Origin: an uncultured bacterium | Lineage (GTDB): Bacteria > Planctomycetota > UBA1135 > UBA2386 | Length of the DNA stretch: 64,000 nucleotides | Reading direction: 5' to 3' | Assembly: GCA_937906475.1 (NCBI GenBank) | Contig: CALCZA010000054.1 | Location: 29,810 to 93,809, forward strand | In this document: one piece after another, positions 8,428 through 13,891 of the stretch | Position numbering within the stretch: position 1 is the first letter of the stretch | Layout: each line of letters begins with the position of its first letter | Made by a program: the position numbers and the translations under genes | Notes under the pieces: model-generated | Told to the model about the DNA's origin: nothing | Databases searched by the model: none | The model's input: the letters and a program-made list of their open reading frames with translations, nothing else

Positions 8428-9498
8428 ATGCCAGCCTCTCTCGTGGTCAGCGCAGTCGTCATCAATTGGAACGGGCAGGACTATCTGCCCGAGTGCATCG
8501 ACGCACTTCTGGCCCAGGATCCGCCGCCAGCGGAGGTTGTCGTGGTCGACAACCACTCGGATGACGAGTCGCGTGCGGTCGTCTCGGAGCGCTATCCCCA
8601 GGTGAGGCTGATCGATACCGGCTTCAATGGCGGACCGTGCCACGCCCGCAACGTCGGGGCGAAAGCCGCCAACTGCGAGCGGGTGTTGTTCCTCGACAAC
8701 GATGTCGTGCTTGAGCCAGGCGGCTTGGCGAAGCTTGGCTCGTGCATGGACGAGGACGACTCGATCGCGATGGTGCAGGCGCGTTCGGTGTGTGGTGACG
8801 ACCACAGCATTGTGCATTACGACGGCGGCGAACTGCACTTCCTCGGCACCTTGGTGTTGCGCAACTGGTATCGCGCTCGCAGTGAGGCCGACGATGCACC
8901 CGGGCCGATTGGCGCCGCCATCGCGCTGTGCTTCTTGGCCAAGAAGAGCGTCTACCAAGAGGTCGGTGGGTTCGACGAGAACCTATTCATCCTCTACGAG
9001 GACAACGAGTTCTCCTACAAACTGCGCATGCGTGGCCACACGATCCGGTTGTGTGCGCAAGCGGTGTGCGTTCATAAGGCTGGCACCGTGGGCCTGAGTG
9101 TGCGCGGTGAAGCTAGATACCCAGGCAAGCGCACCTACCTGCACAGCAAGAACCGTTGGTATGTGCTGTTCACCTGCATGCGGTGGCGAACGTTGTTGCT
9201 GACGGTGCCGGCGCAACTTGTCTACGGAATTGTTTACGCGGCGTTCGGCGTTGGTCGTGGCCATCTCGGCTCGTGGCTCAAGGGCAAATGGGAACTTCTG
9301 TGTCTGCTGCCCCAGGCGATTCGCGCGCGTGGTCCGGCACAGAAGGGACGCACGGTTCCCGATCGCGACCTGCTGGTCGCGTTGCCGATGACGTTGAACC
9401 CGGGGCTCGCGGACAAGGGCGCAGGTGCCGCATTGCGCCGCACCATGGACCGTTTCTTCTCGGTATATTGGCGCTTGGTGCGAGGCCTGTGTGGCTGA
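8428..9498 (+). CDS. Glycosyltransferase family 2
   Basis: VVINWNG, VVDNHSDD, LDND, GGFDENLFILYED. Confidence 0.9.
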   Translation: MPASLVVSAVVINWNGQDYLPECIDALLAQDPPPAEVVVVDNHSDDESRAVVSERYPQVRLIDTGFNGGPCHARNVGAKAANCERVLFLDNDVVLEPGGLAKLGSCMDEDDSIAMVQARSVCGDDHSIVHYDGGELHFLGTLVLRNWYRARSEADDAPGPIGAAIALCFLAKKSVYQEVGGFDENLFILYEDNEFSYKLRMRGHTIRLCAQAVCVHKAGTVGLSVRGEARYPGKRTYLHSKNRWYVLFTCMRWRTLLLTVPAQLVYGIVYAAFGVGRGHLGSWLKGKWELLCLLPQAIRARGPAQKGRTVPDRDLLVALPMTLNPGLADKGAGAALRRTMDRFFSVYWRLVRGLCG

Positions 9499-10468
9499 CG
9501 CATCGCCGGCAGCAGCAGGAAGTTCTTCAAGCTCTGCCGGCCGGCCGGTTGTCGCGGCGCTGCTGCTGAACTACCGCGGTGCTGATATGACGCTGCAGTG
9601 TGCGCGCGACTTGTTGGCCATTACGGATGTAATGCTCAGCATCGTCGTGCTCGACAACAACTCAGGCGCCGGCGAGGTTGCTCAATTGCAGCAGGGCATC
9701 GCTGACATGCCGCGCGGCCAGCACGAATTACATGTGCTGCCGTTTGCCGAGAACTTTGGCTTCGCCGGTGGCATGAATCGCGGCATTGAGTTCGCGGCGC
9801 GCGAGAAGATCCCGTTCGTGCTCGTGCTCAACAACGACATGCGGTTGCCGAGTGACTTTGTGCTGCCGCTGCTCGACGTGTTGCGCAATGACCCGGCCGT
9901 GGGCGCTGTCGGCCCGACGGTAGTGCATCCAGATGGCACGGTGTGGGCCGAAGGTGGCGAGCTTGGGTTTGTGCCCAATGGTCTGCGGTTGATTCGCCAC
10001 GGCCAAAAGCCGAGCGACGTCACCGATGGCCCAGCAGAGGTCGGCTTCTTGACTGGGGCCTGCATGATGATGCGCACCGAGGTGGCGGGGGGCGTAGGCG
10101 GCTTTGATCGCAACTACTTCATGTATTGGGAAGACGTCGCGATTAGCAGCAAGTTGCGGCGGCGCGGTCTGCGCATCGTTTGGTTGCCGTGGGTGCGCGT
10201 CGAGCACCTCGGTGGTCAATCGTCAGGTGGCGGCCGCTCGCCGCTGCGCAAATTCTTGATGGCGTGCAACGCCGTGCGTTACTTGAAGGCGCACGGTTCG
10301 GTCAAGGCGTGGGCCGGTTGGTTGCTGTTCGATGTGCTGCTATGGCCGATCACTTTCGTGATGGGGCCCGCAGCGGCGTGGGCGAAGATGCGCGGCACGA
10401 TGGCCGGATTGTCGGGGCACACTGCGAACGCCAACGATGTTGCGCGCTTTCTCGGCGAGAAGGCCTGA
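9491..10468 (+). CDS. Glycosyltransferase family 2
   Basis: LLNY, NFGFAGGMN, LNND, GGFDRNYFMYWED. Confidence 0.9.
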   Translation: MADASPAAAGSSSSSAGRPVVAALLLNYRGADMTLQCARDLLAITDVMLSIVVLDNNSGAGEVAQLQQGIADMPRGQHELHVLPFAENFGFAGGMNRGIEFAAREKIPFVLVLNNDMRLPSDFVLPLLDVLRNDPAVGAVGPTVVHPDGTVWAEGGELGFVPNGLRLIRHGQKPSDVTDGPAEVGFLTGACMMMRTEVAGGVGGFDRNYFMYWEDVAISSKLRRRGLRIVWLPWVRVEHLGGQSSGGGRSPLRKFLMACNAVRYLKAHGSVKAWAGWLLFDVLLWPITFVMGPAAAWAKMRGTMAGLSGHTANANDVARFLGEKA

Positions 10469-10472
10469 CGCC

Positions 10473-11726
10473 TTACTTTGAGTCGCTCATCGCTGCGACC
10501 CAATGTGCCGCGCGATCGTGATGCGGCAGTGCCGCCAGGTCGGTGCGAAGTTGGCGTAGCTTTTCGGCTAGCACTGCCAGCGCTGGGTTGTGCTCGTCTC
10601 GGGTCTGTGTTGCGGAGACGTCGAAGCAGAGTCCCTGGCACGTTGTGGCGGTTGCATCGATTACGACATCGCTATTGGTTAGCGCTACGAACTCACGTTC
10701 GATGGCCTCGTCGATGGTGCCGGTCTCGCTAGTCGTCACGGTCGCGATCACCGTCAACGAACCTCCGTGTTCGCATTCTATCGTGCTGGCGAGCACGTTT
10801 TTGGCGAGCAGGATGGCCTTCGCGTCGAGTCCTGGTTGGATCCACGATCCCGAAGGAGCGCTCGAACGGCTCCGCGCCCGCGTCAATGCGGTTAGCGAAT
10901 CGATTAGCAGGATGACGTCGTGGCCTTGCTCGACCTGACGCATGCAGCGTTGCCACGCGAGTTCCGCCACTATGACGTGGCGTTCTGGTGGCGCTGCGAA
11001 GGCTGTGCTGACCAGGCACGTGCCCGAAGCGGTGAGGCCCGAAGCGATCATGTCCCGAGCGGTGACGATGTCTTCCGGCCTCTGGTCTAGCAAGCAAACA
11101 GTGATGTCTGCATCTGCGTGCTGCTCCTGCAAAGAGCAGGCTAGCGTCGTAAGAAAACGTGCGCGCGGCCACCTCGCTGGAGCATGCACCAGCATGCGGC
11201 TGCCGAATGACATTGGTGCGAGCGTCTGCATCGCGTGCAACATGAGTTGCGTGTCATCATTGGCTGTCGGTTGGACGTCGGTGAACAGCAGCGGCCGGCT
11301 GGTCGCGATCGCCGTGCGACTTCTGAATCCCGTCACGCTCATCAATTGCTCGGGTGGCGTGTCTTGCACGAGGTCGACATGCACCAGGGCAAGCGTGTGT
11401 TCGTTACTGCGCGGGATACAAAGTTCGCCGCGGATGCGATGACCCGATTGCAGGTTGAGGCTGCGCACCTGGTTGGCGCTGACGTAGGCGTCTACGGCTG
11501 TGATTTGGAAATCGAGCGCCACTATGCGGATGAATCCAAAGCCATCTGGCAGAACATCTAGCACACCATCCGCGGTGACCGTCTCGCCGTTCTCCATCAT
11601 GTTGGTGGCGATGGCTTGCACCAGTTCGTCGTGCTGCAAGTGGGGTCGCAAGCCGATGCTGCGCTCGGTTGCCGTGGTCAGCAATTGCTCACGGGTGAGA
11701 TCAAGCAGGTCGGTGAGCGAGGTCAT
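10473..11726 (-). CDS. Rho transcription-termination factor homologue with degenerate ATPase motifs
   Basis: Colinear with Rho: DGVLDVLPDGFGFIR, DAYVSANQVR, LLDQRPED, DVILLIDSLT, GGSLTVIAT; Walker A is replaced by APARWPRA. Confidence 0.88.
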   Translation of the reverse strand: MTSLTDLLDLTREQLLTTATERSIGLRPHLQHDELVQAIATNMMENGETVTADGVLDVLPDGFGFIRIVALDFQITAVDAYVSANQVRSLNLQSGHRIRGELCIPRSNEHTLALVHVDLVQDTPPEQLMSVTGFRSRTAIATSRPLLFTDVQPTANDDTQLMLHAMQTLAPMSFGSRMLVHAPARWPRARFLTTLACSLQEQHADADITVCLLDQRPEDIVTARDMIASGLTASGTCLVSTAFAAPPERHVIVAELAWQRCMRQVEQGHDVILLIDSLTALTRARSRSSAPSGSWIQPGLDAKAILLAKNVLASTIECEHGGSLTVIATVTTSETGTIDEAIEREFVALTNSDVVIDATATTCQGLCFDVSATQTRDEHNPALAVLAEKLRQLRTDLAALPHHDRAAHWVAAMSDSK

Positions 11727-12367
11727 GCGCTGGGGTCTAGTTGCAGAAGAAGGTCGTCGACTGCTTGTTCGGTTGCCGACAGGTCGCCGTTGTTGTCGAT
11801 TATGTACTGCGAGCGGGCTCGCTTGTCAGCGAGCGGAAGTTGGTTCTGTTCTCGTCGTATCAGTTCGTCGTCGGCCCAGCCGCGGCTGCGAGCACGCTCG
11901 GCGCGGGCTTCGTCGCTGGCCTCGACGAACACGACCGTGTCGCAGATTTCGAATAGTCCCGCCTCGAACAGCAGTGGCACGTCGAGCAGCGCCGAGTCGC
12001 CCCGCTGCCGGGCGGAGTCTAGCGCGGTTGTGATCCGTTGGCGCACCCTCGGATGCATGATCGCCTCCAGTCGCGCCTTCGCTTCGGGCACCCGAAAAAC
12101 GTGATCTCCGAGTGCTGCCCGGTCGAGTTGGCCACCCTGGACGAACCGGTCGCCAAGCTGCGCGGCCACTTCCGCGAGCGCCTGAGGGTCCTCGGCGACC
12201 GCTTTCGCATGGAAATCCGCATCTACATGAAGGAATCCGCGGGCGCCAAATAGGCCCGCGACCTTCGATTTTCCGGCCGCGATGCCGCCCACCAGTCCGA
12301 CGACTAGAGGGGGTTGGGGTCGAAAAGGGCCATTTGGGCCCGGATTCCCGGTAGGGGGTGCCGGCAT
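11723..12367 (-). CDS. coaE: Dephospho-CoA kinase
   Basis: VGLVGGIAAGKS, DAD, LEAIMHPRV, DVPLLFE, IDNNG. Confidence 0.95.
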   Translation of the reverse strand: MPAPPTGNPGPNGPFRPQPPLVVGLVGGIAAGKSKVAGLFGARGFLHVDADFHAKAVAEDPQALAEVAAQLGDRFVQGGQLDRAALGDHVFRVPEAKARLEAIMHPRVRQRITTALDSARQRGDSALLDVPLLFEAGLFEICDTVVFVEASDEARAERARSRGWADDELIRREQNQLPLADKRARSQYIIDNNGDLSATEQAVDDLLLQLDPSA

Positions 12368-12421
12368 GGGGTCATCGTGGCGGAGAGTTCTCGGCTAGGC
12401 AAGTCAGCCGTATACGCGACC

Positions 12422-12449
12422 TTGACCGGGGCCGTCCGAAACCTAAGAT
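12422..12449 (+). promoter_or_regulatory. Candidate sigma70 promoter for the 12620 gene
   Basis: TTGACC-N16-TAAGAT in the divergent intergenic region. Confidence 0.4.
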
Positions 12450-12619
12450 CTGCGGACCCCCTGTGGTGGCTCGTGCCCTCGTGTCACTAGCCCTACGCTT
12501 TCGAGTCCGACTTAGAAAGCCCCTCATCCTCCCCGACGCTTCGTCCCTGCGGTTTCTGTTCGCCTTCCCAGGCCTAGCAGAACAGCGCACACAGCACAGA
12601 CCCCTTGGAGTTGGTTCAG

Positions 12620-13891
12620 ATGCACAATCGCCAGACCGGTGCCGCCCACGTCCCGATCATGTTCTTCCTTATCCTCCTGGTCATGTTCCTGGGGGCCCTC
12701 GGGTTTGCCTATGTGCAACAGACCGAGAATGCAGAAGTCGTGAAGGCTAAGCGCGTGGCCGTTGAAGAAGCCCGCCTGCTGAAGCAGAAGGAACTGCTGA
12801 TCACGCACTACATCGAAGACTGGGGCAAGGTCATCAACAAGCCCGGCAAGTATGTCGGTCGCCCCGGTTCGGCCAAGCTCTACGGCGATGCCACGCTGCA
12901 ATACGACGGCTTGATGAACCCAGACGAGATCAAGGAAGTCATCGACCAGGCCGTCACCAACGCTCAGGTGTCAGTTGCCAGTTCGTTGGAGGGCTTGCTT
13001 GGTTCGTTGATCACGAAACTCAACACGCAAAGCCAGCGCATCGCGGACGTCACGCTCGAGAAGGACAAGGCGCTTTCGGACAAGGAGTCCGGCGACAGCC
13101 GCTTTACGACCGTCTCGAACGATGCCCAGAAGACCGCCGCCGAAACGTCGACCAACCTCGGCCAAGCGGTTGCGGACTTCGATTCGGCCAAGTCCGATCG
13201 TGACCGCCGCATCACCGCGCTTCAGGAAAACCTGAAGTCGAAGGACGATGAGTTGACCACCTACAAGGAAGACGCACTTGTCCGCGAGAAGGCGTTCAAC
13301 GGCCGCATCGGCCTGCTGCAAACCCAGCTCTCGGCCATGTCCGAGAAGATGGCGATGCGTCAGCCGCCGAACGTTGCCGACGGCAAGGTTCTGGTTGCCA
13401 AGAACGGCATCCCGACCGCGTTCATCAACTTGGGCCGCAAGGACATGTTGCAGCCGGGCACCGTGTTCCGCATGAGGGCCGCCAGCGGTGGTCCGGTGAA
13501 GGGTTACTGCGAAGTCACCCGCATCGAAGACGAGCGCGCCGAAGTGCGCCTCTACAACTTCAGCGATCCGGTCGCGAACTACGCGACCGAAGGCGACCTG
13601 CTGTTCAACGACCTCTACACGCCGCGCGTCACCCGCACGATGTTCTTGATGGGTCGCTTCAGCGCCCCATACCAAAAGGATCAGGTCACGAACCTGCTCC
13701 GTCGTCTCGGCAACCGCGTCGTGACCAAGATGGGCCCCGGTGTTGACACCGTGCTACTCGGCAACAACCCGGTCAACGAAGCTGGTGACGGCTTCGCTTC
13801 GGTCCAGGACAGCCCCGCGTTCAAGCTGGCCAACGAACTGCGGGTCGAGTTCACCTACCTGTCGAAGATTGCGGACCTGATCAAGCTGTAG
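12620..13891 (+). CDS. Membrane-anchored coiled-coil protein with a C-terminal BRCT-like domain
   Basis: N-terminal TM, long coiled coil, AFINLGRKDMLQPGTVF beta domain, then FLMGRF...LLRRLGNRVVTKMGPGVDTVLLG; codon bias typical of highly expressed genes. Confidence 0.75.
   Translation: MHNRQTGAAHVPIMFFLILLVMFLGALGFAYVQQTENAEVVKAKRVAVEEARLLKQKELLITHYIEDWGKVINKPGKYVGRPGSAKLYGDATLQYDGLMNPDEIKEVIDQAVTNAQVSVASSLEGLLGSLITKLNTQSQRIADVTLEKDKALSDKESGDSRFTTVSNDAQKTAAETSTNLGQAVADFDSAKSDRDRRITALQENLKSKDDELTTYKEDALVREKAFNGRIGLLQTQLSAMSEKMAMRQPPNVADGKVLVAKNGIPTAFINLGRKDMLQPGTVFRMRAASGGPVKGYCEVTRIEDERAEVRLYNFSDPVANYATEGDLLFNDLYTPRVTRTMFLMGRFSAPYQKDQVTNLLRRLGNRVVTKMGPGVDTVLLGNNPVNEAGDGFASVQDSPAFKLANELRVEFTYLSKIADLIKL

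Follow-up and report, generated by a model that had tools for sequence, protein, structure and literature searches.

We analyzed a rho-like gene in a 64,000-nucleotide stretch of contig CALCZA010000054.1 (assembly GCA_937906475.1; this whole stretch is called the window), which originates from an uncultured bacterium of the Planctomycetota. Rho, a paradigm among ring helicases, is the main factor-dependent terminator in bacteria. The gene lies directly downstream of coaE and encodes a full-length Rho-like protein, here called pseudo-Rho. The protein is very probably ATPase-dead and, at the same time, selectively maintained. We show that the gene is the positional orthologue of the principal Rho, i.e., the N-terminal-domain-bearing Group A copy, and that it is the shorter paralogue, Group B, and not the Group A copy, in which the motor survives.

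The open reading frame (ORF) of pseudo-Rho starts with ATG and contains no internal stops in the translation of the window. Its upstream neighbor was assigned to CoaE by PF01121 (2.3e-41) and TIGR00152 (2.4e-36). The two frames overlap in an ATGA, a junction geometry that is shared with the relatives G009, G002, G014 and G013.

10473..11726 (-): pseudo-Rho ORF (417 aa, P0001), stop codon included; supported by ORF calling, TIGR00767, phmmer, AlphaFold2 (AF2) and Foldseek
11723..12367 (-): coaE (dephospho-CoA kinase), the upstream partner in the conserved coaE-rho pair; supported by Pfam, TIGR00152 and synteny
11723..11726 (-): ATGA in which the stop of coaE overlaps the start of pseudo-rho; read from the window sequence and its relatives

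The protein was then compared with Rho by profile, sequence and structure. TIGR00767, the Rho equivalog model, aligned residues 4-409 to model positions 3-396 of 415 and scored 218.0 bits, below its cut-off of 509.45, which fits an ATPase half that is strongly diverged. The scores were likewise low against NF006886 (217.5 bits, below 315) and NF041509, named paralog_Rho2 (128 bits, below the cut-off of 628). In a phmmer search of PDB sequences, residues 3-357 aligned to E. coli Rho (E ~1e-45). The AF2 model of the monomer, based on an alignment of 22 family sequences, reached a predicted local distance difference test (pLDDT) score of 92 and a predicted template-modeling (pTM) score of 0.91, and its best Foldseek matches were full-length E. 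coli Rho chains (TM 0.83-0.87, 27% identity). At the level of domains, Pfam Rho_RNA_bind (PF07497) matched pseudo-Rho at 3.1e-17 (62.6 bits; threshold, 27), and the generic ATP-synt_ab nucleotide-binding domain matched weakly (5.5e-08). Pfam Rho_N was not detected at E<=0.01; residues 3-47 nevertheless aligned to the E. coli N-terminus, and helices were modeled at residues 4-8, 12-21 and 32-45.

11586..11726 (-): N-terminal helical domain, residues 1-47, from the alignment to the E. coli Rho N-terminus and AF2; the least constrained part
11343..11585 (-): RNA-binding domain with an oligonucleotide-binding (OB) fold, residues 48-128, from Pfam Rho_RNA_bind

Motifs were compared residue by residue in the phmmer alignment to E. 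coli Rho; the arginine finger, which lies outside that alignment, was taken from MAFFT alignments. The positions are as follows.

11526..11546 (-): RNA-binding motif RNP1, DGFGFIR (E. coli DGFGFLR), residues 61-67
11160..11183 (-): degenerate Walker A, APARWPRA replacing APPKAGKT, residues 182-189
11070..11087 (-): DQRPED replacing DERPEE, residues 214-219; the catalytic Glu is changed to Gln, and the adjacent Arg, Pro and Glu are retained
10875..10901 (-): Walker B region, DSLTALTRA replacing DSITRLARA, residues 276-284; Asp-Ser is retained and the DSITR Arg is gone
10830..10853 (-): remodeled Q-loop, SGSWIQPG replacing SGKVLTGG, residues 292-299; seen in the phmmer and family alignments
10593..10610 (-): arginine-finger region TQTRDE, residues 373-378

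In the RNA pocket, DIYVS of E. coli corresponded to DAYVS, with Asp and Tyr retained, and G62, G64, F65 and R67 of RNP1 were invariant in 22 family copies. In the ATPase half, the R-loop TGSKMD was changed to ETGTID and EFKGTGN to EFVALTN, so that KGTG was replaced. TQTRDE aligned with SGTRKEE of canonical Planctomycetota Rho, and T375 and R376 were invariant in all 22 family copies that reach the finger region. Without the Gly-Lys-Thr of the P-loop, the catalytic Glu and the motifs of the Q- and R-loops, the protein is very unlikely to be capable of canonical ATP binding, ATP hydrolysis or RNA translocation. The lost Q-loop had given way to a new motif, SG[AS]W[IV]QPGLDA (10830-10853 (-) and orthologues), which was conserved across the genus of the window and suggests remodeling under constraint, not decay. 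An earlier note on this DNA, made from its letters alone, had described an intact 417-aa ORF coupled to coaE and colinear with Rho over its whole length, with the OB-fold motifs and the arginine finger kept and with Walker A, the catalytic Glu, DSITR, the Q-loop, the R-loop and EFKGTGN replaced. The frame, start, overlap and CoaE family were all verified, the colinearity was found in concert by TIGR00767, phmmer and the superposition of the AF2 model, and each kept or replaced motif was seen in the alignments.

We next placed the gene among its relatives. Nearly all of 41 genomes of the same order carried two Rho-like genes. These were extracted as pairs where the contigs permitted and fell into two classes with ~30% identity between them: Group A with the N-terminal domain and the classical RNP1, and Group B with no N-terminal domain and a variant RNP1. 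These classes match the pairs published for Actinomycetota and the Planctomycetes-Verrucomicrobia-Chlamydiae (PVC) group. Intact orthologues of pseudo-Rho were present in 24 genomes of one marine Planctomycetota family, across at least 12 genera. In this family, coaE lay directly upstream and on the same strand wherever the contig flank sufficed; the exceptions were L008 and L077 (contig ends) and L025 (none within ~2 kb), and at L017 coaE lay ~400 nt further upstream. The same arrangement was found for the intact A-type rho in the other families of the order and at 29/30 Group A loci sampled elsewhere in the phylum, and just one locus classed as Group B (L118) had coaE upstream. The conserved coaE-rho synteny therefore identifies pseudo-Rho as the positional orthologue of the principal Group A Rho of the phylum, not a stray extra copy. 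In a phylum sample of 81 genomes, most had an A-type copy at 600-700 bits and many also a B-type copy at ~400-540 bits. A full-length but low-scoring A-type copy was found among them only in the genome of the window (G000, 218 bits) and in G082 (245 bits), both of the same family.

L118 (G063:C3:185500-190700) is of note in its own right. Its match to the curated model starts at position 52 with 520 bits, i.e., it is Group B-like, yet coaE is directly upstream. Its class had been assigned before synteny was considered, and it may instead occupy the A position with an N-terminus that has been replaced.

A motif census was then taken of 23 family A-type copies (2 of which are fragments), 15 A-type copies from other families and 38 Group B copies. 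The entries give the number of copies with the P-loop motif GK[TS], its variant GR[TS], the catalytic Glu, the Thr-Arg of the finger (TR) and the RNP1 motif G[FY]GF.

Family A-type: GK[TS] 0/23; GR[TS] 4/23; Glu 5/22 (Gln 15, Ala 2); TR 22/22; G[FY]GF 22/22
A-type, other families: GK[TS] 15/15; GR[TS] 0/15; Glu 15/15; TR 14/14; G[FY]GF 11/15
Group B: GK[TS] 38/38; GR[TS] 0/38; Glu 38/38; TR 38/38; G[FY]GF 4/37

The copy of G082, added after the census, also lacks GKT and has DQR and RTRP. When 17 fully dead copies were compared with 26 live A-type copies, the dead ones still had the residues of the RNA pocket, the Gly-x-Arg that precedes the P-loop, Asp214, Arg216, Pro217 and Glu218, the Walker B Asp-Ser, GGSLT, Asn351 and Thr375-Arg376. 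They had lost the P-loop, the catalytic Glu, the DSITR Arg, the Q-loop Lys and Thr, the R-loop and KGTG, and had newly acquired Gln215, Cys211 and the Trp/Gln-Pro motif of the Q-loop. The proteins of L012 (G001), L013 (G003), L015 (G007) and L077 (G012) lacked ~13 residues between the Asn351 equivalent and the finger.

The genome of the window, a 4.85-Mb draft that is 94.5% complete, encodes a second Rho on contig C26 (G000:C26:2-1204, locus L001), which scored 437 bits against TIGR00767 although the gene is interrupted by the contig end. Its motifs are intact (APPRSGKT, DERPEE, DSITRLTRA, EFKGTGN and SGTRKEE), and its OB domain is atypical, with EGNGWLRK replacing DGFGFLR and an insertion of DDIPNG. 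It belongs to Group B, whose N-terminus lacks the helical domain and instead leads from a short conserved peptide through a run rich in Arg and a long low-complexity stretch rich in Gly to the OB domain, as seen in complete relatives (L036, L037, L043, L050, L057 and L061). The contig of G000 breaks within the Gly-rich stretch. No third, intact Group A rho was found in G000, where TIGR00767 gave four matches only: the Group B copy, the dead A copy and two weak ATPase matches on C106. Likewise, the closed single-contig genome of G001, from the same genus, had a single Group B copy and a single dead A copy, and both genes were present in 22/25 family genomes, the exceptions being 69-90% complete. 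Judged by these motifs, termination proper in the genome of the window must fall to Group B Rho. The earlier note had called for a genome-wide search for a second, canonical rho and had supposed that, if there were none, the lineage had repurposed its only Rho; the intact copy on C26 refutes this supposition, i.e., the lineage did not repurpose its sole Rho. That the variant RNP1 of Group B arose together with the death of A was ruled out, as the variant is found in Group B order-wide.

The order of the losses could be followed across the family. In the basal genera (g2, g4, g6 and g10), the P-loop reads G-R-T and the remaining motifs are intact. Genus g9 has SRRN at the P-loop and still has DERPEE. 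In the crown genera (g1, g3, g5, g7, g8 and g25), no P-loop motif is left, and Gln or Ala occupies the catalytic position. That is, the loss was stepwise: the Walker A Lys was changed to Arg first, and in the crown genera, to which the genome of the window belongs, Glu was then changed to Gln, the P-loop collapsed and the channel loops were remodeled. The A and B gene trees placed the genera in the same order, indicating vertical co-inheritance of the two genes. Horizontal transfer and assembly artefact were ruled out as origins, since synteny and the gene tree track the genera of the family. In an IQ-TREE analysis of 103 rows (posterior mean site frequency model, quick search; unrooted, with the family A-type rows flagged for long branches and deviant composition), the family A-type copies stood together, apart from Group B, on one side of a branch with 100% support in the Shimodaira-Hasegawa-like approximate likelihood ratio test. 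Their branches were very long, and those of the family B copies very short.

Selection on the two genes was assessed in the four closest genomes by the method of Nei and Gojobori. The ratio of nonsynonymous to synonymous substitution rates (dN/dS) was 0.17-0.27 for pseudo-Rho at dS 0.54-0.94, and 0.04-0.10 for Group B rho. The values by domain were as follows.

OB domain: dN/dS 0.06-0.19
RecA core (residues 166-360): dN/dS 0.13-0.17
N-terminal part: dN/dS 0.36-0.68
Linker: dN/dS 0.19-0.70
C-terminus: dN/dS 0.19-0.62

Purifying selection on pseudo-Rho is thus relaxed when compared with that on its motor paralogue, and is focused on two parts, the domain that binds RNA and the fold of the dead ATPase. 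In the 22 family copies, 27 alignment columns were invariant, functional RNA-pocket residues among them, and internal stops were absent from every match in the genomes sampled. The earlier note had taken the gene for an ATPase-dead Rho paralogue and not for a decaying pseudogene. Both views gained support from the uninterrupted frames, from dN/dS values well away from ~1 and from the orthologues beside coaE, none of which has GKT; the first was refined in that the paralogue is the principal Group A orthologue by position.

Contigs from four RNA-library runs (X14-X17; three studies) fell on the ORF and left 11165-11634 uncovered. They spanned 10635-11164 (X14), 10405-10572, 10633-10851 and 10917-11118 (X15) and 10565-10767 (X16), and the X17 contig at 11635-11789 crossed the coaE/rho junction with >31 letters on either side. 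As RNA libraries may carry over DNA, these contigs are only a hint, and a weak one, that pseudo-rho is expressed.

Degenerate Rho-like proteins were not confined to this family. A HMMER scan of 1.84 billion representative proteins was reduced to the best 150 clusters, which together with the query gave 151 sequences. Of these nearest sequences, 96 had GK[TS], 8 had GR[TS] and 47 had neither, so that 55/151 lacked the P-loop lysine motif; a GFGF-like RNP1 was present in all that reach the OB domain. FastTree recovered a 51-row clade (support 0.996) in which all family A-type copies were joined by roughly half of the degenerate representatives, and GKT was found in none of its members. A separate group of 15 rows (P0028, P0029, P0033, P0034, P0055-P0057, P0065, P0068, P0070, P0104, P0106 and P0143 are members) had mostly degenerate Walker A motifs and had mostly lost the arginine finger too, indicating that the finger is not required for the fold. 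This second group includes WP_072696724.1, which is named transcription termination factor Rho of Desulfovibrio litoralis by its sources. Rho-like proteins with a degenerate ATPase thus seem to have more than one origin. The named members of the degenerate groups carry plain Rho annotation; together with the 55/151 figure, this means that Rho gene counts over-estimate the termination capacity of such lineages.

What the dead copy does can be proposed only conditionally. We favor, tentatively, the reading that it joins Group B in mixed Rho rings, where its part would be non-catalytic. In such rings, the N-terminal domain and the classical rut-binding site would come from dead A, whose retained arginine finger would insert into the intact ATP site of its neighbor. 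We prefer this reading because the trans-acting finger is present in 22/22 copies though their own ATP site is gone, because A keeps the N-terminal domain and the classical RNP1, both of which are absent from B, and because other degenerate Rho-like proteins mostly drop the finger. The predicted complex of Group B with dead A lends weak support to the pairing: its score was 0.49, and that of the best of 3 controls was 0.00, with at least 77% contact agreement between runs and a partner pLDDT of at least 84. The mark used in these predictions was reached by 58/80 solved complexes and 2/110 mismatched pairs; at scores of <=0.60, it was reached by just 7 of the 80 solved complexes, plus both passing mismatches. 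A/B hetero-hexamers were raised as a possibility by Moreira et al. 2024 (PMC11347177), in the part of that paper that bears on them. The stricter form of the idea, a natural hetero-hexameric Rho resembling F1 in which dead A (N-terminal domain, rut site and finger) alternates with live B (P-loop and translocation loops), appears to us rather unlikely; if it were true, the GRT genera would represent an intermediate stage that binds ATP without hydrolyzing it.

Several observations weigh against mixed rings. As Rho hexamers have already been solved, the predicted complex may reflect likeness only, and most passes in this score range are wrong, except where the pairing was a likely one to begin with. 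We know of no natural hetero-hexameric Rho. The ~30% identity between A and B, and the presence of both as complete proteins in the other families of the order, indicate that they were perhaps ancestrally separate homo-hexamers. Group B keeps its own finger (38/38), and therefore needs no partner for complete active sites; it is slow-evolving, with no obvious family-specific adaptation or acceleration, and as its RNP1 varies order-wide, the "complementary loss" between A and B is only partial. Dead copies also retain the Walker B Asp (16/17) and the Arg beside the lost Glu (14/17), so the retention of the finger may be structural. The Tyr110 equivalent of the RNA pocket is Thr in the genome of the window and its three closest relatives. 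The four proteins that lack ~13 residues before the finger end soon after it, and this shortened C-terminus indicates that some members of the genus can do without the C-terminal helices. In G023 (family f1, genus g10; a 10.3-Mb genome, 90% complete), which has a GRT-type A copy (C270:2146-3384, L025; 504 bits), no Group B Rho was found at that completeness, which hints that the GRT stage may still act alone; if Group B is truly absent there, the Lys-to-Arg form may serve by itself as Rho. Finally, the loss of ATPase activity in pseudo-Rho is deduced solely from motifs.

The same data bear on other explanations. It is possible, if less so, that dead A is a stand-alone RNA binder without a motor. 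It would form its own oligomer, a ring or an open one, on pyrimidine-rich single-stranded RNA through its OB crown and would not translocate; it could shield rut sites (an anti-terminator) or serve as an RNA chaperone or regulator, in each case without involving the Group B motor. As expected for such a binder, constraint is strongest on the OB domain (dN/dS 0.06-0.19), and 22 copies show no variation in RNP1, in the Asp of DxYVS or at Glu109. The SG[AS]W[IV]QPGLDA motif arose with the loss of the ATPase, suggesting a new constraint over mere decay, and the ancient divergence of A and B, both complete in other families, favors separate assemblies. Lys-to-Arg P-loop mutants of RecA-type ATPases bind ATP and do not hydrolyze it, and the long-lived GRT stage may be likened to them. 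A stand-alone binder, however, does not explain why the trans-acting finger is retained in 22/22 copies after the loss of their own site, when other degenerate Rho-like proteins mostly lose it, nor, oligomerization aside, why the whole RecA core is under strong constraint. Net charge was no argument either way, as the OB domains of dead and live copies did not differ clearly in it.

Dead A could also act on Group B rings as a poison, entering or capping them and blocking sequential hydrolysis, so that the A:B ratio tunes termination down. The interface likeness and co-occurrence data are the same as for mixed rings, the translational coupling with the housekeeping gene coaE implies steady expression, and ring-locking protein inhibitors of Rho are known, e.g., Psu and Rof, in the part of PMC12360218 that describes them. 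We nevertheless regard an inhibitor as doubtful, as a poison would not need the conserved finger and RNA pocket (22/22 copies), and the constitutive co-expression of an inhibitor with a housekeeping gene would be an odd regulatory design. A slowly decaying relic, whose function went with the ATPase and which persists through weak or indirect constraint such as the coupling to coaE, would fit branches far longer than those of Group B, dN/dS 2-4 times higher, relaxed N-terminal, linker and C-terminal parts (0.2-0.7) and the C-terminal deletions in some relatives. It is very improbable in view of the intact frame in every genome sampled (at least 12 genera), dN/dS well under 1 with dS unsaturated, the 27 invariant columns that include functional RNA-pocket residues, and the confident AF2 model (pLDDT 92). 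Equally hard to credit is an NTPase or motor with a non-canonical nucleotide site, e.g., with Arg substituting for the old Lys. Arg stands at the Lys position in pseudo-Rho and 59% of dead copies, the Walker B Asp is retained and G023 may depend on a GRT-type copy alone; but in the genome of the window the P-loop Gly is changed to Pro and Thr to Ala, the catalytic Glu to Gln, the RNA-handling residues of the Q- and R-loops are replaced, and the protein reaches only 218 bits against the 509 cut-off of the curated Rho model.

Around the gene pair, a family-2 glycosyltransferase ORF (PF00535, 9.3e-13) at 9425-10468 (+) converges on the 3' end of pseudo-rho, the two stop-codon ends being 4 nt apart. 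At 12605-13891 (+), a 428-aa ORF that matches no Pfam family at E<=0.01 is divergent from coaE. A promoter/terminator scan of 10200-12800 gave one promoter-like and two terminator-like matches, which were not above those in shuffled sequence. Near-identical DNA was found in 13 seawater/marine metagenome runs (at least half of the sampled words matched).

These results describe a principal Rho orthologue that, in at least 12 genera, is a full-length, selectively maintained pseudo-ATPase whose paralogue carries the motor, i.e., a natural separation of the RNA-loading module of Rho from its motor module. The graded series from GKT through GRT to none shows the order in which a ring ATPase subunit turns non-catalytic. 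The family also offers a concrete system in which to test the long-floated idea of a hetero-hexameric Rho, as mixed or non-motor rings are directly testable. If the F1-like form were true, it would be a living example of a homo-hexameric RecA-type ring becoming a catalytic/non-catalytic alpha3beta3 motor. Rho goes unmentioned in a paper on the essential genes of Planctopirus. In full-text literature searches, we found no description of a full-length Rho without a P-loop motif; the supplements of Moreira et al. 2024 lay outside this search and could contain such cases.

Compared with canonical Rho (Group A / Type 1-2; E. coli, PDB 1pv4, 3ice and 5jji), pseudo-Rho has the same colinear N-terminal helical, OB and RecA-like domains. 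It shares RNP1, the pocket Asp and Tyr, the Walker B Asp-Ser, the GGSLT strand and the Thr-Arg finger, and it occupies the coaE-rho position typical of Group A in Planctomycetota. Unlike canonical Rho, it has replacements of GKT, the catalytic Glu, the DSITR Arg, the Q-loop Lys and Thr, the R-loop and KGTG. Other ring ATPases contain non-catalytic subunits that keep the arginine finger, such as F1-ATPase alpha and clamp-loader delta-prime. In the Torsin system, the partner LAP1, which has no nucleotide-binding motifs, keeps a strictly conserved arginine, as described in the relevant part of PMC4358337. Pseudo-Rho, itself from a family of hexameric RecA/AAA-type rings, resembles all three in that its own nucleotide site is degenerate and its trans-acting arginine is strictly conserved, which is an analogy only; Group B, the partner here, differs from Torsin in having an arginine finger of its own (38/38).

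Among Rho proteins, a second, shorter Group B (Type 4 / 2d) copy is known from Actinomycetota and the PVC group (D'Heygere et al. 2013, cited in Moreira et al. 2024, PMC11347177), and NCBIfam models this second copy as NF041509. In the passages of the latter paper that deal with these pairs, the shorter copy has conserved catalytic residues, and the Rho proteins described, known second copies included, all keep them. The family of the window resembles these pairs in having two rho genes per genome from an ancient duplication. It differs from the pairs as presented there, in which the divergent copy is the short one and catalytic residues are conserved: here, it is the full-length copy, N-terminal domain included, in which catalysis is gone, and the motor is intact in the short one. 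The same paper mentions "Rho-like" proteins with N-terminal and RNA-binding domains only, e.g., in Baekduia soli and Conexibacter woesei (PMC11347177). Pseudo-Rho is like these in being a Rho derivative that keeps the RNA-binding module without a working motor. Unlike the "Rho-like" proteins as described, which have no ATPase domain, it retains the whole RecA-like domain, which is folded in the model and under purifying selection.

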